From NCBI GenBank assembly GCA_029261065.1, contig JAJDCB010000011.1, positions 175,168 through 239,167 on the forward strand: a stretch of 64,000 bases of DNA, read 5' to 3'. Position numbers and translations under genes: made by a program. The DNA is from Candidatus Omnitrophota bacterium (lineage in GTDB: Bacteria; Omnitrophota; Gorgyraeia; Zapsychrales; Zapsychraceae). The notes under the pieces are model-generated. The model searched no databases, was not told where the DNA came from, and saw only the letters and a program-made list of their open reading frames with translations. Shown here piece by piece: positions 216 to 62,326 of this stretch; positions within the stretch are counted from its first letter, which is position 1, and each line of letters begins with the position of its first letter.

Positions 216-289
216 GTCGTCCTGATCCAAAAATTTGTTGTTTATAAGGTCCTAAAACTAAGTAGATTCTCGATGCCTCGGGAATGACA
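216..289. repeat. Degenerate copy of the palindromic MITE/REP-like element
   Basis: TGTCGTCC ... CCTCGGGAATGACAG termini match the family's TIR-like ends. The internal sequence is diverged. Confidence 0.45.
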
Positions 290-375
290 GATTATTGAAC
301 ACCCCACAAATGTTCGTTTCCTTAATTGTGACGAAGTACACTGAGCAGGAGTGAGGAAAAGGATTTGTAAATTAT

Positions 376-404
376 TTTGCTTAAAGCTATGAAGCAGGGT
401 ATAC
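376..404 (+). promoter_or_regulatory. Candidate sigma70 promoter (TTGCTT-17nt-TATACT) for the small basic protein gene
   Basis: -35/-10 hexamers with 17-nt spacer read directly; roughly 160 nt upstream of the SD+ATG at 565. Confidence 0.3.
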
Positions 405-564
405 TTTCAATAAGAAAGGCATATTAATGATCGAAGAATTTTTAGTGGCAATTCCAACGCAAAGCTCCCCATTTCAATGGTTTGCATTATTTTTCCTAAC
501 AAAATTTGTTATGGCACAGGACAATTTTTTAAGAATATCACCCAAAAGGATCAAGGAGGATCTA

Positions 565-797
565 TGAACATTATGGATTTGAGAGAATTGTTAAAGGATA
601 AGCGTGTCATAGAAGAAATTAATAAACATCTTTGGATTGAGAGTCAAAAGGCGGGCTACAGTATCGGAATTGAGCGGGCTACGGATGAATGGTTGAGATT
701 ATATTCGACAGGTTGGATGAAATATAATCAACCTGAAAAATATGCAAAGTTGGTTCGAAAGAAGAAAAAGGCTCCTAAAAAAGTTTCCAAAAGATAA
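565..797 (+). CDS. Small hypothetical protein with a Lys-rich C-terminal tail (KKKKAPKKVSKR)
   Basis: ORF 477..797 trimmed to the ATG at 565, preceded by AAGGAGGA at 553-560. Followed by a strong hairpin terminator. No family recognised. Confidence 0.55.
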
Positions 798-810
798 AAT
801 TTTTGACAAA

Positions 811-846
811 TAAAAAACCCTCTGAGTGATCAGAGGGTTTTTTATT
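811..846. terminator. Bidirectional intrinsic terminator between convergent genes
   Basis: 8-bp perfect stem CCCTCTGA/TCAGAGGG with GTGA loop (818..837), flanked by an A-run upstream and T-run downstream. It can serve both converging transcripts. Confidence 0.8.
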
Positions 847-862
847 TCTATTGGCAGCCCAA

Positions 863-1111
863 TTATTTTCTCTTTGTTGCTTTTTTCTTCGCTGCTTTTC
901 TCTTTGTTGTTTTCTTCTTCGCTGCTTTTTTCTTTGTTGCTTTTTTCTTTGTTGCTTTTTTTCTTGTTACTTTTTTCTTTGCAGCTTTTCTCTTTGTTGC
1001 TTTTTTCTTTGTTGCTTTTTTTCTTGTTGCTTTTTTCTTAGCTGCTTTTTTCTTTGTTGCTTTTCTTTTTGGTGCTGCTTTCTTTCTTGTTGCTTTTCTT
1101 TTTACGGCCAT
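863..1111 (-). CDS. Histone H1-like / Hc-like lysine-alanine repeat nucleoid protein (82 aa, almost pure KKKA(T/A)K repeats)
   Basis: Minus-strand ORF with a strong SD (AAGGAGGAAGAAT-ATG) and the terminator at 818..837. The plus-strand ORFs over the same repeat lack an SD and encode poly-Leu/Phe/Cys nonsense. Composition resembles the eukaryotic H1 C-terminal domain and chlamydial Hc2/AlgP KA-repeats. Confidence 0.75.
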   Translation of the reverse strand: MAVKRKATRKKAAPKRKATKKKAAKKKATRKKATKKKATKRKAAKKKVTRKKATKKKATKKKAAKKKTTKRKAAKKKATKRK

Positions 1112-1274
1112 ATTCTTCCTCCTTTATTAAGAGATTTGTTCGCCTTGTTATAGTTTTATATTAGCATGAAGTTTTTTTTATGCAAAAATAATTTAACTTT
1201 TTTTAGAAAAAAAATGTTTTTAAAATTCATTTTTATTTTATTTTTGAATTGAAAATATAAAAATGACGACGAGA

Positions 1275-6811: not shown

Positions 6812-9715
6812 ATGATCTGGCGCATTGAAATAAAACAGAAGAATGGCGTGTTTGATCCCCACCGTGATAGTATACAAAAATCCATCGAAGAGCTTGGTTT
6901 AACTTCTATTACTGACGTTATTGTTGATCGTATTTTTTATCTTCATGGCGATTTAAACGAAACTCTCGTTCAAAAAATTGCTGATGAATTGTTGGTCGAT
7001 AAAATTACACAAGACTACACCTACACATCTAACTTCATATCTCTTAACAATACAAACGATAAAGAATGGAAAGCTATAGAAATTTCCTATAACCCTGGTG
7101 TTATGGATCCTGTTGAAGCCTCAACCGTTAAAGGGATTCGAGACTTGGGATGTCAGGGTGTTACATCCGTGCGTACGGCACAAAAATATTATCTTAAAGG
7201 AAAGGTTTCGAAGCAAAAGTTAGATCTTATTATCAATAAAGTATTATCTAATAAGCTGATTCAGCATGTTGTTGATTATAAGCAGATTGAAAAAAACTTT
7301 ATGCCTGTTGCAACGGATAATAAATTTGAATTGCTTCTAGTCGAATTGCTTAAAGCAAATGACTCTAAACTTAAAAAAATTAGTCAAGAGGGTCAGTTGT
7401 TTTTAAATCTTGATGAGATGAAAACAATACAAAAACATTATAAGAAATTAAAGCGTAACCCAACGGATGTCGAGCTTGAGACGATCGCGCAGACTTGGAG
7501 TGAGCATTGTTTTCACAAAACATTTAGAGGTAACATCCGTTATCAGTCTGTAGAAGGTGGGAAAAAGAAAACAACTTTAATTCGTAATTTGCTTAAATCA
7601 ACAATTGTTAAGGCAACCAAAGAGATTAATAAATCGTGGTGTGTTTCTGTCTTTGATGATAATGCGGGTGTAATAAAGTTTGATAAAGATTCTCATGTGT
7701 GCATTAAGGTAGAAACGCATAACCACCCATCAGCCCTCGAGCCTTTTGGTGGGGCTAATACAGGTATAGGTGGGGTCATTCGCGATATATTAGGAACGGG
7801 GCTTGGCGCAAAACCTATTTGTAACACGGATGTCTTTTGTTTTGCTTCTCCAGATATGGAATTTAAAGATGTCCCTCCTGGTTCTTTGCATCCAAAACGT
7901 GTGATGAAAGGTGTTGTTAGCGGTGTACGTGATTATGGAAATAAAATGGGTATTCCGACAGTCAATGGTTCCATTTTATTTGATGAAAAATTTGTGGGTA
8001 ATCCTTTAGTTTATTGTGGTAGTGTTGGAATTTTGCCGAAAGATAAAGTTAAAAAGAAAGTTTTTAAAGGTGATTTAGTTGTGGTTGTCGGTGGAAAGAC
8101 AGGCCGTGATGGGATTCATGGGGCGACATTTTCTTCGGGAGAATTAACGGATGAGTCAGAGGTTGTTTCCTCGGGTGCTGTTCAGATTGGTGATCCTATT
8201 CAAGAGAAGAAGGTTCTAGATGCGTTATTAAAAGCTCGAGACAAAAATCTTTATACCTCTATTACAGATTGTGGTGCGGGCGGTCTTTCAAGTGCTATTG
8301 GAGAAATGGGACAAGAGTTAGGGGCACGCATTGACTTGGATAAGGTTCCTTTAAAATATGATGGCTTGCGTTACATGGAAATTTGGATTTCAGAGTCTCA
8401 GGAACGTCTTGTTATGTCAGTAAGTCCAAAGAATGTAGATAAATTTTTACAAGTTTTTGCTGATGAAAATGTTGAGGCAACAGTGATCGGAGAGTTTGTC
8501 GATTCAAAACAGCTTGGCCTATTTTTTCATGGCTGTCAGGTGTGTGATTTAAGTATGGAATTTCTATTTGAAGGGACGCCACGAATTACGAAAGAGGCTG
8601 TTTGGAAAACGCCTAGGTTAAGCGAGCCAAAAATTCCTTTGAAGACTGATTTAAATGTCAAATTACTTGAAGCCTTGTCTCATTATAACGTTTGTTCCAA
8701 AGAATGGGTTGTGCGTCAATATGATCATGAAGTTCAGGGGGGAAGTGTTATCAAACCTTTTGTGGGACGTAAAAATGATGGGCCTTCAGATGCTGCTGTT
8801 ATTACACCTAAATTAGATTCAAATAAAGGGCTCGCTATCTCCAATGGTATTAATGTTCGTTTCGGTATGATTGACCCTTTTTGGATGGCAGCCTCTTGTA
8901 TTGATGAAGCGCTACGTCAAATTGTGTCCGTGGGTGGCGATGTTAGTAAAATTGCTATACTCGATAATTTTTGTTGGGGCAATCCTGATAAGCCGGACCG
9001 ATTAGGCTCTATGGTGCGCGCGTCACTTGGGTGTTATAAAGCGGCCGTCGCTTATCAAACACCTTTTATTTCCGGAAAAGATAGCTTGTACAATGAATAC
9101 ACCCAGGGGAAAAAATCAATTGCTATCCCCGGCACGATCTTAATCTCGGCTCTTGGTATTATCGAAGATGTTAGTAAAACGATTACCATGGATTTTAAAG
9201 GGCACGATAATCTTATTTATTGTGTAGGGCAAACATATGATGAGTTGGGCGGTTCGATTTATTTAGATACGTGTGGGTCGTTGGGAAAGAATGTGCCGAT
9301 TGTTAATTTTAAACAGGGGCTTAAAACATTTCAGGCGTTAACGGGTGCTGTTAAAAAGAGATTGATTGCTTCGATGCACGATTGTTCTGAAGGGGGGTTG
9401 GCGGTTGCCTTAAGTGAGATGGCGTTTAGCGGTGGGTTTGGAGTAAGTGTTCGATTAGATCATGTTCCTTATAAAGGAAAGACAAAGCGCAATGACAATA
9501 TTTTGTTTTCCGAATCCAATTCGAGATTTTTAGTCGAGGTGGATCCGAAGAATCAGAAAAAGTTTGAGAAGCAAATGGGTTCAGTTCCACATCGTTGCAT
9601 CGGCACAACAGAGAAGACGCCTGAGTTTATTGTTTATGGGGTTAAACAAGATGTATGCCTGAATGTGTATCTAAAAGATTTAAAGGAAGCGTGGAAAGCG
9701 CCATTACGTTTTTAA
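6812..9715 (+). CDS. purL: Phosphoribosylformylglycinamidine synthase: FGAM synthetase (PurL) fused to an N-terminal tandem PurS-like domain
   Basis: Residues ~1-90 and ~95-180 both resemble PurS (DPHRDSIQKSIEELG...; YNPGVMDPVEASTVKGIRDLG...). The PurL N-terminus starts at ...ETIAQTWSEHCFHKTF. No glutaminase domain; purQ is a separate gene. Confidence 0.9.
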   Translation: MIWRIEIKQKNGVFDPHRDSIQKSIEELGLTSITDVIVDRIFYLHGDLNETLVQKIADELLVDKITQDYTYTSNFISLNNTNDKEWKAIEISYNPGVMDPVEASTVKGIRDLGCQGVTSVRTAQKYYLKGKVSKQKLDLIINKVLSNKLIQHVVDYKQIEKNFMPVATDNKFELLLVELLKANDSKLKKISQEGQLFLNLDEMKTIQKHYKKLKRNPTDVELETIAQTWSEHCFHKTFRGNIRYQSVEGGKKKTTLIRNLLKSTIVKATKEINKSWCVSVFDDNAGVIKFDKDSHVCIKVETHNHPSALEPFGGANTGIGGVIRDILGTGLGAKPICNTDVFCFASPDMEFKDVPPGSLHPKRVMKGVVSGVRDYGNKMGIPTVNGSILFDEKFVGNPLVYCGSVGILPKDKVKKKVFKGDLVVVVGGKTGRDGIHGATFSSGELTDESEVVSSGAVQIGDPIQEKKVLDALLKARDKNLYTSITDCGAGGLSSAIGEMGQELGARIDLDKVPLKYDGLRYMEIWISESQERLVMSVSPKNVDKFLQVFADENVEATVIGEFVDSKQLGLFFHGCQVCDLSMEFLFEGTPRITKEAVWKTPRLSEPKIPLKTDLNVKLLEALSHYNVCSKEWVVRQYDHEVQGGSVIKPFVGRKNDGPSDAAVITPKLDSNKGLAISNGINVRFGMIDPFWMAASCIDEALRQIVSVGGDVSKIAILDNFCWGNPDKPDRLGSMVRASLGCYKAAVAYQTPFISGKDSLYNEYTQGKKSIAIPGTILISALGIIEDVSKTITMDFKGHDNLIYCVGQTYDELGGSIYLDTCGSLGKNVPIVNFKQGLKTFQALTGAVKKRLIASMHDCSEGGLAVALSEMAFSGGFGVSVRLDHVPYKGKTKRNDNILFSESNSRFLVEVDPKNQKKFEKQMGSVPHRCIGTTEKTPEFIVYGVKQDVCLNVYLKDLKEAWKAPLRF

Positions 9716-18017: not shown

Positions 18018-19445
18018 ATGACATTATTTAAACAATATCCCAATTTAGAAATTATTCAATCTTTAGCCAAGCAATCAAAGGTTAAAGTGCATCTTGTTGG
18101 TGGTTTTTTGCGTGATTTTGTCTTAGAGCGTGAAGGATGTGATTTTGACTTTGCTGTCGAGAAAAGGGCTTTGAAGCTTGCCCAAGTGTTTGCTGACAAA
18201 ATTAAGGGTGCTTATATCGTTTTAGATGAACAGCGTGGTTGTGCTCGCGTTGTCAAAAAGAAGGAAGGTCGTATTTATTCGTATGACTTCTCCGACTATC
18301 GAGCCAAAACGTTTTTGGAAGATCTAAAAGATCGAGATTTTACTGTTAATACCTTGTCTTTAAATTTGTCTGAAGCAAACGCCCAAACAATTTTGTCTGA
18401 GGCGATAGTGGATCATACTCGCGCGATGAAGGATATCAAGGATAAGCGCATCAAAAGAGTTTCTATAAGAGCTTTCCGTGATGATCCTTTACGGATGATG
18501 CGAGCGTTTAGTCTAAAGGCTAATTATGGATTTAAAATTGAGTTAAAGACTTTAAATCAAATTCGTAAGGAAAAAGAGTTAATCAAAAATGTTTCGTATG
18601 AGCGTATTCGTGAGGAGTTGTTTAAGGTTCTTGAGTCTGAGAAAACATTTGATGTTTTAAATACCATGGATCGCTCTGGTTTGCTTGAACATGTGATACC
18701 GCAACTTCATGTGATGTTTAAATGTAAGCAAGGAGGATATCATCACTTGGATGTTTGGCCGCATTCATTGGAAGCTGTTCGTCAATTAGAGAAAGTTTTT
18801 AGACAACAAAAAGATAATCCTGATGTGGATGGCTATTTAAATGAAATCATTGCTGGTGATCATTCTCGGCGGAGTTTGATTAAATTGGCAACACTGTTAC
18901 ATGATATTGGAAAACCTGATACGCGAAAAAAAGAAGGCAATAAGCTTTCCTTTCACGGGCATGAGAATGTTGGCAAACATATTGTTAAAGCGATTGCTTT
19001 GATGTTAAAGATATCAACCAAAGAACGTCATGCCATAGAAGATATGGTTCAGCTTCATTTAAGGCCTGGTTATTTATCTAATTTTAAAAAGCCAAGTGAA
19101 CGAATGATTTTTCGTTATTTCAGAGATGCTAAAGATGAAACGGCGAGTGTTCTATTATTATCATTGGCCGATCAACGCGCAACACGAGGGCCATTAACGA
19201 GTCAAGAAGATCAAAAACATCATGAAAAGATTTGTTTGCAGTTGGTGGATCGATATTTTGAAAAGAAAAAAGAGAAACCTTTTGTTCCGTTGGTGGATGG
19301 AAATTATATAATGAAGAAGTTGAAGCTTAAGCCTTCGCCGCTTGTTGGTAAAATTTTAACTGAGTTGGAAGAGGCTCAAGTTTTGGGGAAGATTACGACG
19401 AAGAAAGAGGCTCTTGAGGTGGCGGAGGGAATCATAAAGAAGTAA
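18018..19445 (+). CDS. cca: CCA tRNA nucleotidyltransferase / poly(A) polymerase family protein with HD domain
   Basis: Nucleotidyltransferase head VHLVGGFLRDFVL...DFDFAV and the HD domain motif LLHDIGKP; 475 aa. Confidence 0.85.
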   Translation: MTLFKQYPNLEIIQSLAKQSKVKVHLVGGFLRDFVLEREGCDFDFAVEKRALKLAQVFADKIKGAYIVLDEQRGCARVVKKKEGRIYSYDFSDYRAKTFLEDLKDRDFTVNTLSLNLSEANAQTILSEAIVDHTRAMKDIKDKRIKRVSIRAFRDDPLRMMRAFSLKANYGFKIELKTLNQIRKEKELIKNVSYERIREELFKVLESEKTFDVLNTMDRSGLLEHVIPQLHVMFKCKQGGYHHLDVWPHSLEAVRQLEKVFRQQKDNPDVDGYLNEIIAGDHSRRSLIKLATLLHDIGKPDTRKKEGNKLSFHGHENVGKHIVKAIALMLKISTKERHAIEDMVQLHLRPGYLSNFKKPSERMIFRYFRDAKDETASVLLLSLADQRATRGPLTSQEDQKHHEKICLQLVDRYFEKKKEKPFVPLVDGNYIMKKLKLKPSPLVGKILTELEEAQVLGKITTKKEALEVAEGIIKK

Positions 19446-19447
19446 TC

Positions 19448-19522
19448 ATGTCGTCCCCGCTGAAATGACACGATTACTTGTTATTTCTACACCTATTTGT
19501 CATCCCCGCAAAAGCGGGGAAC
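19448..19522. repeat. Palindromic MITE/REP-like element copy (TGTCGTCCCCGC...TGACACGATTAC...TGTCATCCCCGCAAAAGCGGGGAA)
   Basis: Shares the core TCCCCGC-NNNN-GCGGGGA and the TGTCRTCC / TGACACGATTAC modules with copies at 216, 22680, 25155, 30858 and 62246. Confidence 0.8.
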
Positions 19523-19530
19523 CGTGCGAT

Positions 19531-20460
19531 ATGAAAATAAAAAACACCAAAATTGAAATTATCCAAGGCGACATCACCGACCTACACGTTGATGCCATCG
19601 TTAATCCCGCGCAACCCTCCCTTGTGATGGACGCTGGTCTTGCAGGTGTCATCAAAGGTAAGGCTGGTAAAATTGTCGCCGATGAGGCCGCAGAGAAGGG
19701 GCCCGTTGATGTGGGAGCATCAGTTTTTACAAACGCAGGACAACTTAATGCTAATTTTGTGATTCATGCGGTTACCGTTGATGAGAGTTCCAAAATAAAT
19801 GAACATCAAGTGCGTGCAGCTGTTCGTTCGGCCCTTGAGTGTGCCCAAGAGTTAAAGGTCGCTCGATTAGCGTTACCTGCTATAGGATGTGGTGCTGGTG
19901 GATTTCCTTTTGTGGGATCAGCTAAGATTATGGTTCAGGAAATATTAAAGTTTTGTCGAAAAGACGATGTCGCGCTGACTGAAATTATATTTTGCTTAAA
20001 TGATCAAGAAACATTTGAGATATTCGATAAGCAGGTGCGCGGTTACATAACTCATATCCAAGAAGAGCTTGGTCCTGGGCCTTATGTCACAGTCGATATT
20101 ATCATCGAATTAGAAGAGGGGCTTGTTATTATCGAAAGATCCAATCCTCCTTATGGATATGCTTTACCTGGTGGTTTTCTCGATCGTGGGGAAAGTCTTG
20201 AACAAGCAGCGTGTCGGGAGGCCAAAGAAGAGACGAATATGGATCTTAAAAATTTGAGACAGTTTCATACCTACTCAGATCCCAATCGTGATCCCCGATT
20301 TCACACCATTTCCACCGTTTTTATTGCTAAGGGCGAGGGAACCCCTCAATTTGGCGATGATGCAAAGGGGCTAAAAGTTGTTCCCTACGCTGAACTTCTC
20401 ATTCAAACCTACGCTTTTGACCACAAATCCGTTATTCAAGATTATTTAAATCAGAGATAA
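19531..20460 (+). CDS. Macro domain (ADP-ribose/O-acetyl-ADP-ribose processing) :: NUDIX hydrolase fusion protein
   Basis: N-terminal macro motifs IEIIQGDITDLHVDAIVNPAQ...GCGAGGFP. C-terminal Nudix box GFLDRGESLEQAACREAKEETN. The start was moved to 19531 because the upstream 22 codons lie inside the repeat element. Confidence 0.8.
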   Translation: MKIKNTKIEIIQGDITDLHVDAIVNPAQPSLVMDAGLAGVIKGKAGKIVADEAAEKGPVDVGASVFTNAGQLNANFVIHAVTVDESSKINEHQVRAAVRSALECAQELKVARLALPAIGCGAGGFPFVGSAKIMVQEILKFCRKDDVALTEIIFCLNDQETFEIFDKQVRGYITHIQEELGPGPYVTVDIIIELEEGLVIIERSNPPYGYALPGGFLDRGESLEQAACREAKEETNMDLKNLRQFHTYSDPNRDPRFHTISTVFIAKGEGTPQFGDDAKGLKVVPYAELLIQTYAFDHKSVIQDYLNQR

Positions 20461-20518
20461 GAATTTATTTTTTTCGAATGAATTCCCTTCCAAATAAAGG
20501 AGTTGTGTAAAATTTATT

Positions 20519-20547
20519 ATTGACCAAGAAGTCATTTTAGGGTAATC
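20519..20547 (+). promoter_or_regulatory. Candidate sigma70 promoter (TTGACC-17nt-TAATCT) for paralog A
   Basis: Hexamers read directly upstream of the 20589 start. Confidence 0.3.
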
Positions 20548-20588
20548 TAATCTCTTCGATCTTAATGCAACACCTAATAAAGGTAGAA

Positions 20589-22667
20589 ATGATTAGAAAA
20601 TCCTTGGCTGGGCTATTAGCCCTTTGCGCTGTTCTTATCTTTTCAACATCCCTGTTAGCTTCTTCTCATCGAGAAGAACCTCTGATTTCCCCTTCTCTAG
20701 TCACACAAATCACACCCCAAGAAATAGAAAATTTACCTAACCCAGGCCGCAATTTTTCCGATTTTGCGAATATGACACCAAATGTTCATGTAGATGATAC
20801 GGTTGGGCAAGGGTCTGGATATGCTAATGTTGTTATTAGAAGAGAAGGCGCTGTTGGTGAATCTTTTAATCCACAGTTAGGTTCAACCCTAGGTGGTCCG
20901 CTGATAAAAGACAAATTGTGGTTTTTTGGAAATTTTTCAACGAGTCCCAGCAGTGGTATGACGCAGGCCCCAATCAGCAGCCTTCTACAAGGTGGTTTTG
21001 TCGATTTACAATTTACTGGCCGGGATAATCCTACAGGATATATTGGGGATCTCAATTTGCATAATAATACAGGCGATCTTTTCTTTGGGACGATGCCTAA
21101 TGGGACCAATCTTATCCCCAATGATCCATCCGTTCAAAGGATGTCAACGAGTGGTAATTTTGGTGGTCCTATTTTTCCTGGTTCAACATTTACTACTCCT
21201 TTAAATGGATTTTGTAACGATCACAGCTCTTTTCCTCCGCCTGCTACTTTTTCACAACCCCTTTCTTTAACAACCCCCAATGCACAGAGTTCTACAACGA
21301 TTTCAGACGATAGTTCTACGCCAAAAGTTGATCTTACGCGTTGGGCCGTTTTGCAAAGCGGTATTGATCCTTCTAAAGATTTTTATATTACGGCCGATGC
21401 CATAAACCTTTTTAACGAAGATTATGTTATTGCAAAAGTGCCTGGCATTTCTACGGATTATTTAACGGAATTAGCCACGTTACCAGATCTGTCTAACATT
21501 GTAGATACGATGATTCAGAATAATGAGATCAAACCAACGGGCTTGCCTAGTCAAATGAATAGAGACACTACCATTCAATGGAGCACGTGGTTGTTTAGAG
21601 ACAATTTTGATATTCAAAGTGGTGAGAAAAAGATAGAAGATCAAGTAGAACAGTCGGGAGGATCGCAGACATCTGAACAAATTCAAGAGTTGAATGAAAA
21701 CATATGGGGTAATATTCGTTTGGTTAACAAAAAGTTAAAAGAGAATGTTGTAGCAACAGCGCCTAAGATAGCCGATAAACCTAAGGAAGAATGTCCAAAG
21801 TCATTTCGTGAGCAAATGTTGGAACGAGAGTTAAAACAAAAAATGCGGGAAAAAGGTTTGGTTGAAGATTCTTTAGAGAGAATGAAAGGCTGGTTAGAAG
21901 AAATTAATAGCGATCCGGATTATGATGAAAAGACAAGTAAGTATTCAAAAAGCGGGTTACGTCGAGATATTGGGACGACAAAGGGTTTTCTAGATGAGAT
22001 TAATCAAGCGATTGATGATTTAACTAAGCAAATTGAAGAAGAAAGGAAAAAGGATAAATGTAAAGATAAGACGAGTTTTCGTGTTTTTGAATTTTTTGAA
22101 ATGCTTGTTGATGCGATCACACTAACAAATCCTGCTTTTGCTGATGGCGATATTGTTCTTTCGCTAGATGAAGCACGAGCGCAAGCTTTTCGAGCGATTG
22201 ATAAAGCCTTATATGTTTATACGAAGCTTCAACATCTAACGTTTGATTTAGAAAAAATTGCTGAGACTCCGTATGCTAAGAAAAAATCAAAGTTAAAAAA
22301 GAAAGTATTAAAACAGATACGTACCGAGTTAGGAGAGTTGCAGCTTTTTATGCACACATCAAAAGCTAAGTTTGATAAAACAAAGAAATTAACTGATAAG
22401 AACTTTCTTGAGGTTCGAGACATCAATGGCCATCTTTATGTGAAGGGCGGGGCGTTTGATAAATACTGGAGAAGCGTTGAATCTCGATTGGAAAAAAATT
22501 ATGCAAAGTGGGATGACGCGTATTTAAAATTGCTTGAGAGAAGTGAGCAATCTAAACGAGAAGGAAAAGATTATTTGGCTGATTTCAATCGAGATGAGGC
22601 TGAGTTTTTTAAGGTGTTTTCGAGGGTGAAGTTGTATTGGTTGGTTTTGGAAAAAATATATAATTAA
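20589..22667 (+). CDS. Large secreted protein of unknown function, paralog A (signal peptide; N-terminal beta-rich region; C-terminal K/E-rich coiled-coil region)
   Basis: Signal MIRKSLAGLLALCAVLIFSTSLLASS. It shares motif blocks (NPTGxIG, VQRMS, HPPPA, IxPTGLP, TGGSQTxEQIxxLNENxWGNxRLVxKK, C-terminal FFxVFSxVKLY) with the 22835 gene. Confidence 0.7.
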   Translation: MIRKSLAGLLALCAVLIFSTSLLASSHREEPLISPSLVTQITPQEIENLPNPGRNFSDFANMTPNVHVDDTVGQGSGYANVVIRREGAVGESFNPQLGSTLGGPLIKDKLWFFGNFSTSPSSGMTQAPISSLLQGGFVDLQFTGRDNPTGYIGDLNLHNNTGDLFFGTMPNGTNLIPNDPSVQRMSTSGNFGGPIFPGSTFTTPLNGFCNDHSSFPPPATFSQPLSLTTPNAQSSTTISDDSSTPKVDLTRWAVLQSGIDPSKDFYITADAINLFNEDYVIAKVPGISTDYLTELATLPDLSNIVDTMIQNNEIKPTGLPSQMNRDTTIQWSTWLFRDNFDIQSGEKKIEDQVEQSGGSQTSEQIQELNENIWGNIRLVNKKLKENVVATAPKIADKPKEECPKSFREQMLERELKQKMREKGLVEDSLERMKGWLEEINSDPDYDEKTSKYSKSGLRRDIGTTKGFLDEINQAIDDLTKQIEEERKKDKCKDKTSFRVFEFFEMLVDAITLTNPAFADGDIVLSLDEARAQAFRAIDKALYVYTKLQHLTFDLEKIAETPYAKKKSKLKKKVLKQIRTELGELQLFMHTSKAKFDKTKKLTDKNFLEVRDINGHLYVKGGAFDKYWRSVESRLEKNYAKWDDAYLKLLERSEQSKREGKDYLADFNRDEAEFFKVFSRVKLYWLVLEKIYN

Positions 22668-22679
22668 TATGATTATGTT

Positions 22680-22810
22680 GAGATCCCCGCTTTCGCGGGG
22701 ATGACAATATTGTTTTCTTATAGGGTGCAGCGAAATAGAAAAAGTGTCGTCCTCGCTCCATTTGTCATTCCCGCGAAAGCGGGAATCCATGGGGCGGGGA
22801 TGACACTATT
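22680..22810. repeat. Composite palindromic MITE/REP-like element (two palindromic units plus a conserved linker CGAAATAGAAA..GTGTCGTCC)
   Basis: TCCCCGCTTTCGCGGGGATGACAATATT ... CGAAATAGAAAAAGTGTCGTCC ... TGTCATTCCCGCGAAAGCGGGAAT ... GGGGATGACAC. About 95 bp are near-identical to the copy at 30858. Confidence 0.85.
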
Positions 22811-22834
22811 AATTTAAAAAAACGGGAGATACTC

Positions 22835-25153
22835 ATGCGCAAAATTTTCACAGCATTATCAATGTTTATTCTATTTACATCCCCAGTCCATGCCATGGAC
22901 GTTGTCATGACTCCAGAAGATTCTGTTGAATGTCCATCAGCGTGTCCATGCTGTGATGATATTATTCCAAATTTAAAAAACAATATGGAAGATTTCAATG
23001 AATATATTGATGACATGAAGAAATATACAGAAGAAAACTATGATTTTAAAAAGGTAAGGCAAAATCACACGGTACGTCAAGATGCGGTTAATCGATCGCA
23101 AAGTTCTGATAGAGATACATCGCGTCAAGGTCATTCCGATTATAGAGATATTGCAGAAAAATTTAAGGACAAGGAAGCTAGTATTACAGAGGATCATAAT
23201 GACATTGATGACTCCTTAGATGACATGGAGCAGATGGCCCAAGATATTATTGCAGATATTGACAAGTTAAAAAACTGTCCTTGTTGGGCTGAAGTTTTAG
23301 AATGTTGTGGAGGTGTCTTGTGTGAACGGTTTCTTTCAGATCGCGCGCAGACAGCTAAAGATTTTCTTGAGAATAAATTGCCTGATTTAAAAAAGAATAA
23401 TGGTTTAGCAAGAAACGGGGCTATGGCGGTTGTGTTAAGTTATAGTGAAGACGCCCAACGCGTTGCAAAAGATGCGATGAAAAATTTACAAAAAGGTTTT
23501 CAAGATCTTTGGAAGTTTGATCCGAGCATTGTTAAAAAGATTGGCGATTGTTGTAAAAAGGGGAAAGACGAATGTTTTGAAGATACCGTCGCTGGCGATT
23601 ATGCATTACCTTTAGATTGGTTGACAGATAGTGGATCAGCCTTAATTGATTTTACGGGTGCTAATAATCCTACAGGGGATATTGGATCTATAGCTGTAAC
23701 AAATCTTACTGGAAAGCCAATGACATTTACTGTGCCAGCAGGAAGTGTTTTAAGTACAGGAGACAACACCGTTCAGCGGATGTCTGTTACTGAGGGTATT
23801 AGAGGAACGGTTAATCCAGGTGAGACTGTTAATTTCCCAGTCCATGGCGTTTGCATGGATTCAACTCTTCACCCGCCACCAGCTTCGACAACAAGTGATA
23901 TAAGTCTCCCAGGTCTTCCTGATTTTTCAGATCTTTTTTCAGGTTTAAATTTAACTCCATCCTCTGGAAGTTTTTGGAAAGACCATGGACTTGATTCGTT
24001 GTTTGGAAATTTAGATGATTTAAAAGAAGAATATGGAGATAAATTGGGCGGCCTTTTGGTTGATGCCTTACCATTTTTTGGAGTTACACCAGACCAAATT
24101 AAACAAATACTTGAAGAGCTTGAACAAGATCAGCAAACAGATATTGATGCGCAATATGATGACATCTTGGATCATTTATGGGAAGAACTTAACACTATGG
24201 GTTTTTCCTCAGAAGTATTTGTTGATATTGCGTTAACAGAGTTCCTTGAAGATTACTTAGATGATCTTTATAAATTTGGTTTAATACCACCCACAGGTCT
24301 TCCTATAGAAACCGAACGAGAAACGCTTTTGCAATGGTTGTATTGGTCGGTCTTAGATGGGTTCGATGAAATGGATGGAGAAAATAAAATAGCGACTGAG
24401 GTAGAAGAAACGGGTGGATCTCAGACGCCTGAACAAATTGCACAATTAAATGAGAACTTGTGGGGCAATGTGCGATTGGTTAAAAAGAAAGCCAAGGAAG
24501 ATCTTACAAATGCAGCCGGCGGGAGTAACACGGGTGCTTTTAAGAGAAAACAAAATTTTTATCAACTTGTCTTAAACTGGCAAAGTGCTTTGAGCGGCTT
24601 AAAGAATATTGTTACTCTGCCGGAAGCTCACGCGCAGAAGTCTTTAAGTATAGAAGAACAGAGGGTTCAGACAGCAAATGCCATGAGACGATTTCAAACA
24701 GTGAAATCTTCTTTGATCAACTTTACATTTGATGTTGAAAATTTAGTTAAGAATGCTGTCTCAATGAAGATTGCTAAAACAAATCAATCAACAGCCGAGT
24801 TTACACGGGCTCAACTTGCTGGTTTAACTCAACAGATTAAAGCCGGTCGACCGACGGTCAACAAAGAGACCGGCATGGATCAGGCGTATTTACAAAGTGT
24901 ATATGCCCACACGCATCAGTTTGTAAAAAAAGATGGAACATTTAACAGCACATGGAAAGACATCAAAAATGATTTGGGTGGTGTTTATAAGAAATGGGAG
25001 GCTAAATATAAAAAGCTTCTTTCTAAAAGCCGTAAGTCTGTTAAGAAGGGTAATCATTATTTAGAAAAGTTGGACCGTGATGAGAGGAAATTTTTTGTTG
25101 TGTTTTCTAAAGTGAAGTTGTATACGATGATTTTGGATAGTATTTATAAATAA
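22835..25153 (+). CDS. Large secreted protein of unknown function, paralog B (Cys-rich N-terminal region)
   Basis: Signal MRKIFTALSMFILFTSPVHA; strong SD (GGGAGA). It carries about 13 Cys in its first ~250 aa, where paralog A is Cys-poor. It shares the motif blocks with paralog A. Confidence 0.75.
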   Translation: MRKIFTALSMFILFTSPVHAMDVVMTPEDSVECPSACPCCDDIIPNLKNNMEDFNEYIDDMKKYTEENYDFKKVRQNHTVRQDAVNRSQSSDRDTSRQGHSDYRDIAEKFKDKEASITEDHNDIDDSLDDMEQMAQDIIADIDKLKNCPCWAEVLECCGGVLCERFLSDRAQTAKDFLENKLPDLKKNNGLARNGAMAVVLSYSEDAQRVAKDAMKNLQKGFQDLWKFDPSIVKKIGDCCKKGKDECFEDTVAGDYALPLDWLTDSGSALIDFTGANNPTGDIGSIAVTNLTGKPMTFTVPAGSVLSTGDNTVQRMSVTEGIRGTVNPGETVNFPVHGVCMDSTLHPPPASTTSDISLPGLPDFSDLFSGLNLTPSSGSFWKDHGLDSLFGNLDDLKEEYGDKLGGLLVDALPFFGVTPDQIKQILEELEQDQQTDIDAQYDDILDHLWEELNTMGFSSEVFVDIALTEFLEDYLDDLYKFGLIPPTGLPIETERETLLQWLYWSVLDGFDEMDGENKIATEVEETGGSQTPEQIAQLNENLWGNVRLVKKKAKEDLTNAAGGSNTGAFKRKQNFYQLVLNWQSALSGLKNIVTLPEAHAQKSLSIEEQRVQTANAMRRFQTVKSSLINFTFDVENLVKNAVSMKIAKTNQSTAEFTRAQLAGLTQQIKAGRPTVNKETGMDQAYLQSVYAHTHQFVKKDGTFNSTWKDIKNDLGGVYKKWEAKYKKLLSKSRKSVKKGNHYLEKLDRDERKFFVVFSKVKLYTMILDSIYK

Positions 25154-25154
25154 A

Positions 25155-25252
25155 GTCGCACGGGTCCCCGATTAAAGCATTCGGGGATGACACGATTACG
25201 CTGTCTCCCTGTGCTTTTTAAATAATGTCGTCCCCGCGAAAGCGGGGATCCA
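25155..25252. repeat. Palindromic MITE/REP-like element copy
   Basis: GGGTCCCCG-ATTAAAGCAT-TCGGGGATGACACGATTACGCTGTC ... TGTCGTCCCCGCGAAAGCGGGGATC. Shares the TGACACGATTAC module with the 19448 copy. Confidence 0.8.
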
Positions 25253-25265
25253 GTAGGAGAAAAAA

Positions 25266-28200: not shown

Positions 28201-28793
28201 TAGCTCCAGGTGAAGAAATTTTTTCACTGGCTTCAAAGGATGCGAAAAAGATTTTGCCATCATTACGTAAAGCGGGGATTTATTCTCAATCCGGAACATC
28301 TTATTCGGCACCCATGGTTGCTGCAACAGCATCATTGTTGTTAACGAAATATCCTCATCTAACAAGTGGACAGCTTGAAGATATTATTGTGAGTACATCC
28401 GTAGATATGGGAGAAGAAGGTTGGGATGATAAGAATGGGGCTGGTTTATTGAATGCTGCAGCAGCACTACAATTTAATCAGGATGAGATTCTTCATGTGA
28501 AGTTTAATAAGATTAAAATTAATAAAAACGAAAAGGGAAAGCTTCTGAATGTTGATGTGTTTGCCACCGTGCAAGGAAATATTGAGGAGTTTAGTGTTGA
28601 GGCGGGTAAGAAAAAGATCGCTAAGAAATTTAAGACGGTAGCAGGTCCTTTTAAAGTTCATGCAGATAATAGTTGGGTGGCTCGCATTGATGCAAAGGAT
28701 TTAAAAGGGAATAAAAATTGGACCATTCGTTTAAATGCGTTACACAAAGATGGAACAACAAAAACAGCAAAATCTATCATAACTCTTAATTAA
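25266..28793 (+). CDS. Secreted S8 family (subtilisin-like) serine peptidase with a ~700-aa low-complexity G/P/T/S/N-rich N-terminal extension and a C-terminal accessory domain
   Basis: Catalytic triad contexts IAMIDSGLD (Asp), HGTFTTGIVAA (His) and GTSYSAPMVAATASLL (Ser). Signal peptide; strong SD. Tandem IFADGFESGDTSAW(T/S)DS repeats in the extension. Confidence 0.85.
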   Translation: MLIRFLLCAVFSFFALTSTSLADPDSVNWENINLNYKAPKAPVEDKQDDTTDNLVSMPSFEYRPDSFLDARIDFEYLLTEQNGLSHHKDMVSSTATSSHLNAINQDTIFIDNQINAFQYDFGRSFNATRGGALTPIEQRAFATNPNSSAFTIDHVPTGLHFVTPDNPFTDNGLRYNSPMLFDGNNNLIRTSNPLFNEFVPQSGAFGNPGGELFPPGGSSGISPISGFGTQPPGATTGTPDSFYVNDTWQLNDKWSFNTGTRFDDPSGAPTTGGNQIGGFGTPFPPSLTGSPFGTPGLPGETNGIHGPMIGCGRVNNECTLVVYDASGATVGSVTADELSADPYRTTNLLNLAETRSRDYFGDDVFGDSNIDPIFADGFESGDTSAWTDSAGSGSTTPRGNTSTENNVSPDAIFADGFESGDTSAWSDSPSGGSTAPSNNNSSNDTNSAPAPTPTAPDNAAEIASLKDQIKGMKKGLDAAPAGGDSLANAMYDTLKDSLANAEARLTELQGQNNTTPTPSETNLSSQPAPPLAYEGPFSPTTRLDGESVYGFPNASAGSPSSRSQLNFDTSFTGTDRLQQHIPSGYAPGNDASFGQFQRGSTLEPFNPFANNNTFTDSASQYPPVSDTFNPSAMAVTRLGNSPGDTAHLAGILNSTLSCRSSGYGPNCFDVLVKCEVYIYVTEDGKVYIVADKDRKATDKTPNDPYYFTEVKKKKKLLGIIGSNKKPKISIGSNMKIGKSVLGAGSSISKKKSNIKDQWGIRDVGFLPTTDPNSAWNLVDSEKRNVTIAMIDSGLDMEHPDGPKYIWKNEGEIPGNGIDDDNNGYIDDVNGWNFLDNNNDLTDYRGHGTFTTGIVAAKRNNGIGIAGINPGAVIMPLKVTDDEGLSNSINIFRAVKYAVDNGAKIINISIAGKELSKILQLAFNYAHRKNVLVVVASGNEGESLEDYGPGGAQHVMAIGAVDYGGTHSVISSWGPNNALLAPGEEIFSLASKDAKKILPSLRKAGIYSQSGTSYSAPMVAATASLLLTKYPHLTSGQLEDIIVSTSVDMGEEGWDDKNGAGLLNAAAALQFNQDEILHVKFNKIKINKNEKGKLLNVDVFATVQGNIEEFSVEAGKKKIAKKFKTVAGPFKVHADNSWVARIDAKDLKGNKNWTIRLNALHKDGTTKTAKSIITLN

Positions 28794-28805
28794 GAGGAGA
28801 AAAAC

Positions 28806-29393: not shown

Positions 29394-29396
29394 AAT

Positions 29397-30125: not shown

Positions 30126-30158
30126 TTTAGGGTGTAGGTGTTAGGTCTTTGAATTGAT

Positions 30159-30845: not shown

Positions 30846-30857
30846 TCACTATTGGTG

Positions 30858-31003
30858 GGTCCCCGCTTTCGCGGGGATGACAATATTATTTTTACTTGGC
30901 ACCGTGGTGTTACGAAATAGAAATCGTGTCGTCCCCGCGTAGGCGGGGATTCGTGCGCCATAATTACTATTACTTGATCCCCGCTTCCACGGGAATGACA
31001 TGA
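30858..31003. repeat. Composite palindromic MITE/REP-like element (three palindromic units)
   Basis: GTCCCCGCTTTCGCGGGGATGACAATATT ... CGAAATAGAAATCGTGTCGTCCCCGCGTAGGCGGGGAT ... GATCCCCGCTTCCACGGGAATGACA. Closely related to the 22680 copy. Confidence 0.85.
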
Positions 31004-31024
31004 TTTCTATTTTGAGGAAATGAT

Positions 31025-60166: not shown

Positions 60167-60199
60167 ACGTTATAAAAATTTTTAATTTTAGGATACAAA

Positions 60200-60502
60200 A
60201 TGCCAACATATACATACGAATGCGATGCCTGCGGACATAGTTTTGATCATCTTCAATCTATGTTAGATAAAAGGCTTAAAAAATGTCCTGTGTGTAGTAA
60301 AAATAAGCTTGTAAGGCTTATCGGGGCTGGTTCTGGTGTCATTTTTAAAGGAACGGGGTTTTACGAAACAGATTATAAGAAGAAGTCGGAAAGTAGCCAA
60401 GCAGAAAAAGGGTCCAAAAAGCAGGGCGCGTCTTCAAGTAATCCTGGAAAAAAGAAAGATTCGACCAAAAAGGCTGCAAGTAAACCAGCTGCAAAAGAGT
60501 AG
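60200..60502 (+). CDS. FmdB family zinc ribbon protein
   Basis: MPTYTYECDACGHSF...CPVCSKNKL CxxC pairs with a Lys/Ser-rich tail. Confidence 0.75.
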   Translation: MPTYTYECDACGHSFDHLQSMLDKRLKKCPVCSKNKLVRLIGAGSGVIFKGTGFYETDYKKKSESSQAEKGSKKQGASSSNPGKKKDSTKKAASKPAAKE

Positions 60503-60547
60503 TCTGCAAGTTTGGCAAGTGGTCAATAAGGTCAAGTAGCCATAAGA

Positions 60548-60925
60548 ATGCGAATTGACAATTTTCTTAGATTTTGGTTTCCAGTTTTGGCTTATTCTGG
60601 TATTATCTTTTATATGTCTTCCCTGCCTAATTTAAAGGCAGGTGGAGAAATTGTTCATTTAGATAAAGTTTTGCATACTTTCGAGTATATGCCTTTTGGC
60701 TATTTAATGGCAAGGGCTTTTGATCGTGCTTTAACTGTGAAATTAAGACATTTCATTGTTTTATATGCCTTTCTTGGCTCTTTAGCCTATGGAATCAGTG
60801 ATGAGTATCATCAATCTTTTGTGATGGGAAGATCAGCTGATGCAATTGATGCTGTTTTCGACACCTTTGGTGGCTTGTTGGGGGCGGTTATCTATGTATG
60901 TTTAACAAAAACTATTAAAGAATAG
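60548..60925 (+). CDS. VanZ-like family membrane protein
   Basis: Four TM helices and the conserved DKxxH / DEYHQ positions typical of VanZ-like proteins. Confidence 0.5.
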   Translation: MRIDNFLRFWFPVLAYSGIIFYMSSLPNLKAGGEIVHLDKVLHTFEYMPFGYLMARAFDRALTVKLRHFIVLYAFLGSLAYGISDEYHQSFVMGRSADAIDAVFDTFGGLLGAVIYVCLTKTIKE

Positions 60926-60934
60926 GAACTTATT

Positions 60935-62197
60935 GTGTCTATAAAGCCGTTTAAAGCAGTTTATTACAATACAAAAAAAGTAGAAGATCTTACCAAGGTT
61001 GTTTCGCCTCCTTACGATGTTATTTCTGAAGAAGAACAATCCTTCCTACATAATTTAAGTTCAAGTAATTTCACACATATTGATTATGGTCGCGATAAAC
61101 CGAATGATGATAAAAATAACAATAAATATACGCGCGCTAAGAAAGTTTTTGAAGAATGGTTAAAGAAAAATATTATGGTTCAAGATGAAGAGCCGTGTGT
61201 TTATTTTTATAAGCAAGAGTATAAAATTCAAGGCCAAAAGCACAGCCGTTTAGGGTTTGTTTCGTTGATGGAGCTTGAAGATGAGGAGGATTCTAAAGTC
61301 CATCCTCATGAGAATACGCATGCTTATGCGGTGGAAGATCGATACAAGCTTCTTAAGTCACTTAATTCTGGTTTAAGCTGTATTTTCGTCTGTTACTCAG
61401 ATAGCCAGAAAAAGGTAGAGAAAATTTTTAATAAAGATGTTTATGTTCAAGATCCTCTTTTAGATGTGGTTGATAAAGATCAGGTGCGTCATAGAATTTG
61501 GAGGATGTCCGATTCTCAGCGTATCAAAGAGATTAAGGATTCATTGTCCAATCAGAATCTTTTTATCGCAGATGGACATCATCGTTATAAAGTAGCCACA
61601 GAATACCGTAAATCACGTTTGGAACGCAAACAAAACTCAGACGGCCAAGAACCATATAATTTCGTAATGACATATTTTACAAACATGGATTCAAAAGATC
61701 TTCAGATTTTTCCTATGCACAGAATTGTCAAGAATTTACCTGTGGAATTAGATTTCTTAGAAGATTTTTTCCGAATTGATAAAGTAAAAGATAAGGAAGA
61801 CTTGATTATATTGTTAGCAAAAGCCGGTAGAAATGAGCATGCTTTTGGTTTATACATGAAAGATGGTATTAAATTACTAAGATTAAAAAATAAAATGTTG
61901 ATTGATGAGCATATCAAAGAAGGCTCAAAAGAGTATAAAAGTTTGGATGCAACTATTTTGAAGTATTTTGTTTTTGATCGGGTCGGGGTTAAATCGGATG
62001 ATATTATTTATACAAAAGATATTCAGGAAGCCACGGGCATGGTTGATGATGGTCAGGCAAGTGCGAGTTTTATTATGAATCCGGTAAAAATTTCGCAACT
62101 TAAGTCTATCGCCTTAAATGGTGAACGCATGCCTCCAAAGACGACATATTTTTATCCGAAAGTTTTGTCTGGTTTGACAGTGTATAAAATGGACTGA
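60935..62197 (+). CDS. DUF1015 domain protein
   Basis: N-terminus MSIKPFKAVYYN...VVSPPYDVISEEEQ is characteristic of DUF1015. Confidence 0.75.
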   Translation: MSIKPFKAVYYNTKKVEDLTKVVSPPYDVISEEEQSFLHNLSSSNFTHIDYGRDKPNDDKNNNKYTRAKKVFEEWLKKNIMVQDEEPCVYFYKQEYKIQGQKHSRLGFVSLMELEDEEDSKVHPHENTHAYAVEDRYKLLKSLNSGLSCIFVCYSDSQKKVEKIFNKDVYVQDPLLDVVDKDQVRHRIWRMSDSQRIKEIKDSLSNQNLFIADGHHRYKVATEYRKSRLERKQNSDGQEPYNFVMTYFTNMDSKDLQIFPMHRIVKNLPVELDFLEDFFRIDKVKDKEDLIILLAKAGRNEHAFGLYMKDGIKLLRLKNKMLIDEHIKEGSKEYKSLDATILKYFVFDRVGVKSDDIIYTKDIQEATGMVDDGQASASFIMNPVKISQLKSIALNGERMPPKTTYFYPKVLSGLTVYKMD

Positions 62198-62245
62198 TAG
62201 CCGCCATCACCCATTTAGTCAAAAAGGCGGGAAGAAATTTTACTA

Positions 62246-62326
62246 ATGTCATCTCCGCGTAGGCGGATATCCGAAACAAAAGTTGTATCATTTATTTTTG
62301 GATTGTCCTTGTCGTGGGAATGACAT
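62246..62326. repeat. Palindromic MITE/REP-like element copy (degenerate)
   Basis: TGTCATCTCCGCGTAGGCGGATATC ... CTTGTCGTGGGAATGACA. Shares the termini and core with the other copies. Confidence 0.7.

Follow-up and report, generated by a model that had tools for sequence, protein, structure and literature searches.

Oriented hairpin repeats in intergenic spacers of an Omnitrophota genome match the CGTC-1/dRS3/SRM family

We analyzed a 64,000-nucleotide stretch of a Candidatus Omnitrophota genome (contig JAJDCB010000011.1 of assembly GCA_029261065.1, positions 175,168 to 239,167; hereafter, the window), in which six loci carry GC-rich palindromes built from a short hairpin-forming unit. The window is about 37% GC. 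Each of the six loci is a short spacer that separates two open reading frames (ORFs) of the same direction, on the + strand, and all of the copies are intergenic. With nine clear units, each of them between ORFs, the original prediction of a dispersed, intergenic palindromic family that resembles repetitive extragenic palindromes (REPs) was borne out. It also placed a palindrome at each of the six loci. All six do carry units, but the copy at 216-289 is badly eroded and does not fold.

The palindromes are real and non-random. The pattern TCCCCGC-N4-GCGGGGA has five matches in the window, versus 0.00 in 100 dinucleotide-preserving shuffles. Allowing up to one mismatch, CCCGC-N4-GCGGG has seven matches (0.14 expected), and the flank GGGRATGACA is found nine times (0.15 expected). 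We also built a covariance model of the hairpin unit from 93 copies, mostly from other genomes, and ran it over all 64 kb with the filters off. Nine units had E < 0.01, every one of them inside the six loci, and there was no convincing match elsewhere in the 64 kb. Besides these clear units, there are about six degenerate or half units, which are also confined to the six loci (0 expected by chance; Table 1). A scan of the window with the Rfam gathering cutoffs and a tRNA scan found nothing.

On its own strand, the unit reads TGTC-(A/G)T(C/T)CCCGC-(GAAA, GTAG, GGAA, or AAAA)-GCGGG(G/A)A(T/C)-CC(A/G), which is to say an unpaired TGTC tag, a GC-rich stem of 7-8 bp, a G-N-A-R tetraloop, and a CCA-type tail. 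The TGTC tag is on the unit's own strand in all nine clear units, and none has a tag at both ends. The GTC of the tag is kept in nine of nine, and most also keep the C that follows the palindrome; the tails are CCA (three units), CCG (three), CTC, TCG, and CAA. Seven of the clear units, the best-preserved ones, have T-A as the second pair of the stem; in the eroded units at 30970 and 62243, this pair is broken. The outermost pair is A-T in two of the window's units, G-T in two, and mismatched in the rest; in the 93-sequence seed alignment it is A-T in 41, G-C in 20, G-T in 5, and something else in 27, and it co-varies. The loop has 4 nt in eight of the nine clear units and 9 nt in the unit at 25157-25196. 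When folded as DNA, well-preserved units reach -9 to -11 kcal/mol (z of -3.1 to -5.5), while the eroded units fold poorly. The two orientations are about balanced, with six units on the + strand and seven on the - strand among the covariance-model matches.

These features correct two details of the original prediction. Because it merged the two unit orientations, it arrived at a fully symmetric consensus (TGTCRTCCCCGC-N4-GCGGGGAYGACA), which is not present in any single unit of the window: the tag is on one side and the CCA-type tail on the other. It also described GNRA- or UUCG-type loops on either strand, but the loop has the G-N-A-R form only when read on the tagged strand. The TTTC loop is the GAAA loop seen on the opposite strand, and there is no UUCG-type loop.

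Some units stand alone and others are paired, with the tags facing inward or outward (tag-inward and tag-outward dimers); low-GC spacer modules are interspersed among them, so that the arrangement is a small mosaic of the kind formed by neisserial intergenic mosaic elements (NIMEs) or bacterial interspersed mosaic elements (BIMEs). The tag-inward dimers are at 22684-22789, 25168-25252, and 30860-30953. In the last of these, the spacer module and its flanking units form an imperfect palindrome with 44-nt arms that are 73% complementary. The tag-outward dimers are at 30927-31000 (36-nt arms, 83% complementary), 62247-62325, and 216-289. There are also half units at 19448-19459, 22745-22756, and 22794-22805, and the latter two form an inverted pair (82% complementary). 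The composite states and inverted pairs of the original prediction held up. So did its common modules: the loci at 22668-22815 and 30846-31010 align over about 84 nt (the claim for this pair, 22680/30858, was about 95 bp), including CGAAATAGAAA..GTGTCGTC, and the loci at 19440-19530 and 25150-25260 (the 19448/25155 pair) have ATGACACGATTAC in common.

Table 1. Hairpin units, half units, and spacer modules in the window. Bits and E values are from the covariance model.
Position	Strand	Feature	Evidence
211..245	+	Degenerate left unit of a tag-outward doublet (TGTCGTCCTGATCC...), hairpin lost	Weak partner unit; match 211-233, 11 bits, E 0.7; no fold
259..293	-	Degenerate right unit of the doublet with 211..245; tagged strand TGTCATTCCCGAGGCATCGAGAATC	Weak partner unit; 14.4 bits, E 0.07
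19448..19469	+	Truncated unit TGTCGTCCCCGC-TGAAA-TGACA (tag and 5' half-stem), then GACACGATTAC module (common to 25190-25202)	Sequence, alignment
19494..19528	+	Full unit TGTCATCCCCGC-AAAA-GCGGGGAACCG; stops 3 nt short of the ATG at 19531	37.6 bits, E 9e-9; SRM match; -9.4 kcal/mol, z -3.75
22676..22710	-	Full unit, tagged strand TGTCATCCCCGC-GAAA-GCGGGGATCTC	45.2 bits, E 5e-11; -10.8 kcal/mol, z -5.5
22707..22744	.	Low-GC spacer module (RS-like), common to 30883-30926 (ATATTnTTTT...GGTG..CGAAATAGAAA..G)	Alignment
22745..22756	+	Half unit TGTCGTCCTCGC (tag and 5' half-stem), 6 nt upstream of a full unit	Inverted-pair search
22759..22793	+	Full unit TGTCATTCCCGC-GAAA-GCGGGAATCCAT; exact dRS3; SRM match	45.1 bits; -9.0 kcal/mol
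22794..22805	-	Half unit GCGGGGATGACA (3' half-stem and tag, opposite orientation)	Weak partner unit; match 22778-22809, 9.2 bits, E 2.3
25157..25196	-	Variant unit with 9-nt loop (TGTCATCCCCGA-ATGCTTTAA-TCGGGGACCCGTGCG), then GACACGATTAC module	24.5 bits, E 7e-5; -7.2 kcal/mol
25222..25256	+	Full unit TGTCGTCCCCGC-GAAA-GCGGGGATCCAG, 10 nt upstream of the subtilase ATG	45.3 bits, E 4e-11; -9.2 kcal/mol, z -4.5
30852..30886	-	Full unit TGTCATCCCCGC-GAAA-GCGGGGACCCAC; SRM match	46.9 bits, E 2e-11
30883..30926	.	Spacer module common to 22707-22744	Alignment
30923..30957	+	Full unit TGTCGTCCCCGC-GTAG-GCGGGGATTCG, left arm of 74-bp tag-outward doublet 30927-31000	35.2 bits, E 4e-8
30970..31004	-	Unit TGTCATTCCCGT-GGAA-GCGGGGATCAAG, right arm of doublet 30927-31000	25.6 bits, E 3e-5; -4.3 kcal/mol
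62243..62277	+	Eroded unit TGTCATCTCCGC-GTAG-GCGGATATCCG, left arm of 79-bp tag-outward doublet 62247-62325	18.2 bits, E 0.005
62295..62329	-	Degenerate right arm of doublet 62247-62325 (TGTCATTCCCACGACAAGGACAATCC), no stable fold	Weak partner unit; 8.7 bits, E 3.4; 16-nt arms, 81% complementary

Repeats of this kind have been described under several names. Bentley et al. (2007; PMC1797815) give dRS3 as ATTCCC-N8-GGGAAT, a 20-bp repeat that flanks the RS elements in NIMEs; the RS families are 50-150 bp in size and recur in arrays. Di Nocera, De Gregorio, and Rocco (2013; BMC Genomics 14:522; PMC3733652) defined a superfamily of CGTC-tagged REPs. Its family 1 (CGTC-1) has an unpaired tag of CGTC, TGTC, or CCTC at one end, an 8-bp stem starting with A-T and T-A, a 4-nt loop, and a CCA tail, and it lies mostly in intergenic DNA where the ORFs are unidirectional or convergent; they equated it with dRS3 and with RPE-6 of Rickettsia, found it in five phyla, and noted that it "apparently lacks a dedicated transposase." More recently, Chenal et al. 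(2025; Nat Commun 16:2388; PMC11893778) extended dRS3 to NTS, an oriented 28-nt repeat (CGTCATTCCCGCGMAVGCGGGAATCYRG), and also to a degenerate pattern, HGTCWYN(0-2)YYVSBRHN(0-5)WNVSBRGN(0-2)RNCYNB, for the Ssn-related motif (SRM). Ssn is the partner enzyme of these repeats.

The units in the window agree with CGTC-1 in the CGTC/TGTC tag at one end, the stem of about 8 bp with A-T and T-A outer pairs, the 4-nt loop, and the CCA-like tail. They also agree in their intergenic setting between unidirectional genes, the frequent inverted dimers, the lack of an adjacent transposase, and the occurrence in several phyla. They differ in that about half of them have G-C, G-T, or A-C instead of A-T as the outermost pair, the inner stem is mostly CCCCGC instead of TCCCGC, and one unit has a 9-nt loop. 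Also, the 2013 list of phyla does not include Omnitrophota (PMC3733652). As for NTS and SRM, the SRM pattern has three matches in the window (at 19498, 22763, and 30855), compared with 0.05 on average over 100 dinucleotide shuffles, and positions 22763-22790 have just two mismatches to the Neisseria NTS consensus (26 of 28 identical). The conserved GTC and the C after the palindrome fit as well: in Neisseria, the GTC tag matters for cleavage and the C for binding (PMC11893778). What sets the window apart from the NTS/SRM-Ssn system is that it has no ssn gene within its 64 kb.

Judging from these matches, the element in the window is the known CGTC-tagged REP family 1, also called dRS3, NTS, or SRM, in a new occurrence in Omnitrophota. 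The original prediction had called the family novel; instead, its unit maps to a published repeat (PMC3733652, PMC1797815, PMC11893778). Since the family has already been described in many bacteria, along with a partner enzyme, this is an ordinary new occurrence and not a new kind of element.

One of the doublets extends the likeness to CGTC-1. Around 30927-31000, complementarity runs about 12-14 nt past the TGTC/GACA tags (AAATAGAAATCG ... TGATTTCTATTT; region 30913-31014), so this doublet sits inside a longer palindrome, as do the CGTC-1 dimers of Halothiobacillus neapolitanus reported by Di Nocera et al. (PMC3733652). RPE-6, a Rickettsia palindromic element (RPE), has the same CGTC-1 unit. 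Over 74 nt, the doublet at 30927-31000 and a locus (L099) from a metagenome-assembled genome (MAG) of Rickettsiales are 77% identical. Some RPE families insert in-frame into genes, whereas the copies in the window are all intergenic.

The mosaic also resembles NIMEs in part (Parkhill 2000; PMC1797815). The window has one exact dRS3 (ATTCCC-N8-GGGAAT, at 22767-22786), its GC-rich hairpins alternate with low-GC spacer modules that recur between loci (for example, 22707-22744 and 30883-30926), and its units cluster by genes for proteins with signal-peptide-like N-termini. In contrast to the dozens of units in Neisseria, for which the family was defined, the arrays in the window are tiny (two to four units), and most of the arms are ATCCCC/GGGGAT. 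Bentley et al. stated that no NIMEs were known outside of Neisseria (PMC1797815). Later work and the sequence of this window show that at least the core unit of NIMEs is widespread beyond that genus.

The original prediction had the copies concentrated around a putative accessory island, and four of the six loci do bracket the genes for two divergent paralogs and a large S8 subtilase. The paralogs (20565-22667 and 22835-25153) are in tandem, are 28-32% identical in blocks, and match no Pfam family; the gene for the 1,175-amino-acid subtilase (25266-28793) lies 3' of them, and repeat units separate each of these genes from the next. By eye, the second paralog and the subtilase have signal-peptide-like N-termini, and the placement of the units recalls the NTS clusters beside surface-protein genes in Neisseria. 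Near the start of the window, there is also a tandem repeat that is unrelated to the palindromes (866-1104; about 15 copies of 15 nt with consensus TTTTTTCTTTGTTGC and a higher-order period of 60 nt). It overlaps a 100-amino-acid ORF at 851-1153.

To see how widely the palindrome occurs, we scanned one genome per species for exact matches to TCCCCGC-N4-GCGGGGAYGACA and found at least 120 stretches (loci are given as L numbers below). The taxa among the matches listed include Alpha-, Beta-, and Gammaproteobacteria, Patescibacteria, Planctomycetota, Fibrobacterota, Bacteroidales, Omnitrophota, Rickettsiales, and Coxiellaceae. Chance matches are possible in GC-rich genomes, and we estimate that there could be tens of these over the whole collection. 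The pattern is also present on 57 stretches from IMG/VR, some of which have 4-9 copies. Across 150 pattern matches (from the 120 listed loci and the window), the first position of the loop is G in 147, the third is A in 145, and the fourth is A or G in 131, and the four bases after the stem have the consensus Y-C-C-A. Because the pattern left these positions free, their conservation implies a single oriented family instead of random hairpins. Many of the listed matches form a doublet, GTCATTCCCGCGAAAGCGGGAATCCAG-N10-20-CTGGATCCCCGC..GCGGGGATGACA, and another Omnitrophota MAG (L028) carries the family, including a variant with a CCCCGG stem. In that MAG, a 126-amino-acid ORF (7499-7879) lies directly upstream of a strong unit; by eye only, its product looks similar to the four-helix-bundle family named "23S rRNA intervening sequence protein."

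Units also form arrays. In a betaproteobacterial MAG (L048, 1950-2178), full units are arrayed head to tail with a period of 54-55 nt, directly downstream of a gene for a GIY-YIG protein. Head-to-tail arrays are also found on three IMG/VR contigs (L146, L151, and L184), and some viral or proviral contigs have 4-9 pattern matches per approximately 10 kb. In addition, around 10% of units, across phyla that are not related, have one to three tandem copies of a partial repeat ahead of them: a flank of 4-9 nt, the tag, and the 5' half of the stem. We saw these half-unit tandems in L001, L005, L006, L007, L012, L019, L025, L046, L055, L067, L083, and L110, as well as in the window (22745-22789), where TGTCGTCCTCGC-TCCATT stands ahead of the full unit at 22763. 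When read on the other strand, the pattern is GCGGGGATGACA-N4-9-GCGGGGATGACA. The boundary of the half-unit repeat is close to the reported cut position of SsnA. We found no description of this pattern in the literature on this repeat family that is cited here.

The partner enzyme is a small nuclease. Proteins of the Ssn type have a single GIY-YIG domain (cd10448 type), and SsnA, with 94 amino acids, binds the hairpin only as single-stranded DNA (ssDNA) and only on the tagged strand, which it cuts a few nucleotides upstream (PMC11893778). In N. meningitidis, the SsnA-NTS pair modulates natural transformation; in Neisseria, the nicking of the tagged strand restricts the incoming transforming ssDNA. 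According to the same study, SRM is near 71% of ssnA homologs and flanks 42% on both sides, and the SRM-ssn-SRM layout was likened to an insertion sequence (IS).

We found the same association from the raw sequences. When we clustered the ORFs of the 120 listed loci, one small family adjoined the motif, namely GIY-YIG proteins of about 95 amino acids (Pfam PF01541, E 1e-16). A hidden Markov model of this small family had hits in 7 of the 120 listed genome loci and 7 of the 57 IMG/VR loci, or 14 of 177. Other than GIY-YIG, a Pfam census of the 150 ORFs nearest to the motifs turned up housekeeping families only, none of them in more than two loci. In L031, L045, and L048, the gene is bracketed by two tag-outward units (TGTCAT-hairpin-CCAG and CTGG-hairpin-ATGACA), with the layout TGTCATTCCCGC-GNRA-GCGGGAATCCAG, 1-6 nt, ATG to stop codon, 3-11 nt, and CTGGAT(T/C)CCCGC..GGGA(A/G)TGACA. 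This bracketing agrees with the 71% figure and the tagged-strand cutting reported for Ssn (PMC11893778). In place of the IS200/IS605 TnpA or RAYT (REP-associated tyrosine transposase) that the original prediction expected as the cognate enzyme, neither of which was found in the window or in the 177 motif-bearing loci, the recurrent neighbor is a small GIY-YIG gene.

Two other observations concern this gene family. In a Fibrobacterales MAG (L085, 632-985), an Ssn-like GIY-YIG gene is bracketed by different hairpins (TGTCATTGCGAGGGGAG...CTTCGCGTTGCTCGCAATGACA) while the TGTCAT/ATGACA tags are unchanged, which by sequence is an apparent specificity variant. Also, Ssn-type proteins among P0241-P0360 that are labeled as Phycisphaerae, Gemmatimonadota, Latescibacterota, Thermodesulfobacteriota, Deltaproteobacteria, and a MAG from the candidate phyla radiation (Daviesbacteria), are 67-78% identical to each other, and most of their genes are on contigs of under 2 kb. 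These identities and short contigs fit with horizontal spread and with assembly breaks induced by the repeats.

Is the element mobile in this lineage? The window's DnaK is 82-84% identical to the DnaK of Omnitrophica/Omnitrophota MAGs, and in two of these relatives (L123 and L124) the genes are in the same order, dnaK-dnaJ-...-DUF1015-accD. Between DUF1015 and accD, L123 has 24 bp and L124 has 51 bp, with no unit in either, versus about 140 bp in the window, where the spacer holds the 79-bp doublet. Neither relative has a unit anywhere in 22 kb. The empty orthologous site in both relatives suggests an insertion in the window's lineage, and the original prediction's view of the element as mobile is probably correct. 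For the spacer at 30.9 kb, relatives L127-L129 are not syntenic and have an unrelated upstream gene, so these did not give a second empty-site comparison.

There is also a sign that the unit is present in many copies. The window's DUF4126 protein is 100% identical to a protein in run SRR15505515, and a short-read Logan contig from the same organism (L126, SRR15505515_173009) starts at position 30865 of the window, inside the loop of the unit at 30860-30882. Such a start is the usual signature of a multi-copy repeat that breaks short-read assembly. The break suggests that the unit is repeated often enough to disrupt assembly with a de Bruijn graph.

Overall, we consider it likely that the six loci are copies of the CGTC-1/SRM hairpin, that this genome encodes an Ssn outside of the window that recognizes the units, and that the units spread via Ssn or another partner. 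As described in the literature, the tagged strand would fold into the hairpin when single-stranded, and the cognate Ssn would bind it and make a nick on the 5' side of the tag, a few nucleotides away. The gene for the enzyme that recognizes the window's units would lie beyond the 64 kb, and the units would have spread into intergenic spacers through Ssn or through another partner. The tag-outward doublets may be gene-less versions of SRM-ssn-SRM.

Several points weigh against this interpretation. The window has no Ssn-type GIY-YIG ORF or remnant (down to 25 amino acids), so the cognate enzyme is assumed, and no Omnitrophota-labeled Ssn was among the 120 best homologs of one Ssn query from Phycisphaerae. 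Ssn is not known to transpose anything. The empty-site comparison is for one locus, with relatives that have just ~82% identity in DnaK, and the element could have been lost from both. The strict SRM pattern is present in only three of the nine units; the others miss it at single positions. For example, units that begin with TGTCG have a G after GTC and fail the W at position 5. The unit at 30923 has a T instead of a C directly after the palindrome, which is reported to be the most critical position for binding by SsnA (PMC11893778). Finally, Bertels and Rainey credit a Group 2 RAYT for the same repeat in Neisseria (bioRxiv 10.1101/2021.07.10.451892). The mobilizing enzyme is thus disputed.

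If a RAYT were responsible, then the inverted doublets would be REPINs that are copied by a single-copy HUH/Y1 transposase encoded elsewhere in the genome. REPIN-RAYT systems, reportedly treated by Nunvar in 2010 and by Bertels and Rainey in 2011, are similar to what we see in their inverted hairpin doublets, their reliance on ssDNA hairpins, an enzyme gene that is bracketed by its own repeats, and non-autonomous copies that outnumber the gene. The doublets at 30927-31000 and 62247-62325 are of REPIN size, and the 21-mer ATTCCCGCGCAGGCGGGAATC was given as the Neisseria REPIN master sequence and assigned to the Group 2 RAYT NMAA_0235 (bioRxiv 10.1101/2021.07.10.451892). Nevertheless, we think this explanation is improbable. 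The tag is TGTC or CGTC, not the GTAG that is typical of RAYT-associated REPs, and no RAYT gene is flanked by CGTC repeats (PMC3733652). A phmmer search with E. coli RayT had no match among the ORFs (of at least 25 amino acids) from the 120 listed loci, the 57 viral loci, and the window, although a single-sequence search has limited sensitivity, and the census of the 150 nearest ORFs includes no recurrent transposase or Y1 family. In contrast, the gene that does recur, 14 times in the same 177 loci, encodes a GIY-YIG nuclease and not an HUH/Y1 transposase. It is similarly improbable that the hairpins are RNA elements that the host has selected at the 3' ends of transcripts to terminate transcription or to shield mRNAs from 3' exonucleases. 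REPs in E. coli do stabilize upstream mRNA. Also, all of the units are in spacers downstream of co-directional genes, their stems are stable, and many may be transcribed, as suggested by Di Nocera et al. (PMC3733652). But T-runs are missing after every unit, and a terminator scan of 19000-32000, which listed 12 candidate sites (10.3 expected), picked up none of the units; so, these hairpins are not canonical intrinsic terminators, in contrast to the terminator role that the original prediction had proposed. Selection on RNA would also not account for the near-equal orientations or for the relatives that lack the element at the orthologous site, and a plain RNA hairpin does not need the tag and tail, which match positions that are important for SsnA (PMC11893778). 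Since the conserved tag, G-N-A-R loop, and CCA tail follow the unit's own strand, not the transcribed strand, and since there are no U-tracts, the 3' ends of mRNAs would be affected secondarily, if at all.

The two remaining alternatives seem very unlikely. The original prediction compared the element to miniature inverted-repeat transposable elements (MITEs) with terminal inverted repeats. A classical MITE would be a deletion derivative of a DDE-type IS, with terminal inverted repeats and target-site duplications, and would be moved by the transposase of that IS. The inverted ends (TGTC...GACA), the several length states, and the insertion polymorphism in the DUF1015-accD spacer would fit. 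However, the apparent terminal repeats are two inverted, oriented hairpin units that are self-complementary and are also found singly and tag-inward. By eye, there is no target-site duplication at the flanks of the three doublets (216-289, 30927-31000, and 62247-62325), and therefore these are not classical MITEs. There is no transposase ORF in the window, and none recurs among the 150 ORFs nearest to the motif elsewhere. The units could instead be retained as attachment or target sites for IS110-family elements or filamentous phages, or be spread by them, similar to the role of dRS3 for the Nf/MDA prophages in Neisseria. dRS3 is indeed the integration target of a phage-encoded recombinase (PMC1797815, PMC11893778), and the motif's presence on the 57 IMG/VR stretches goes in the same direction. 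But a role as a target leaves the origin and the multiplication of the repeat unexplained, the window lacks IS110-type and phage genes, and no such family is recurrent near the motif. Each of these four alternatives is less supported than the Ssn-linked interpretation. We also considered a degenerate CRISPR array, because the repeats of type I-E CRISPRs share the CCCCGC-N4-GCGGGG hairpin. We rejected this candidate: the units are in mixed orientations, their spacing is irregular (33-56 nt within loci and kilobases between them), and some of the spacers are common to more than one locus.

Tracing an apparently novel MITE/REP family to the widespread CGTC-REP/NTS/SRM repeat saves effort. What the window adds is a record of the family in Omnitrophota, a largely uncultured phylum that the 2013 survey did not name, along with one empty-site comparison that is consistent with a recent insertion. 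The association of SRM with GIY-YIG genes was also reproduced independently, from the raw sequence of genomes and IMG/VR contigs. A further idea, which we hold only tentatively and would not bet on, is that the tag-outward doublets at 30927-31000, 62247-62325, and 216-289 are internally deleted, non-autonomous forms of SRM-ssn-SRM that are still transposed by Ssn in this lineage of Omnitrophota, and that the half-unit tandems are footprints of nicking by Ssn and repair. The half-unit duplications and the empty site are small leads on whether Ssn mobilizes these repeats. If it does so in this way, then Ssn would be the mobilizing enzyme that has been missing for the CGTC-tagged REPs, a superfamily that, according to the 2013 survey, lacks a transposase.

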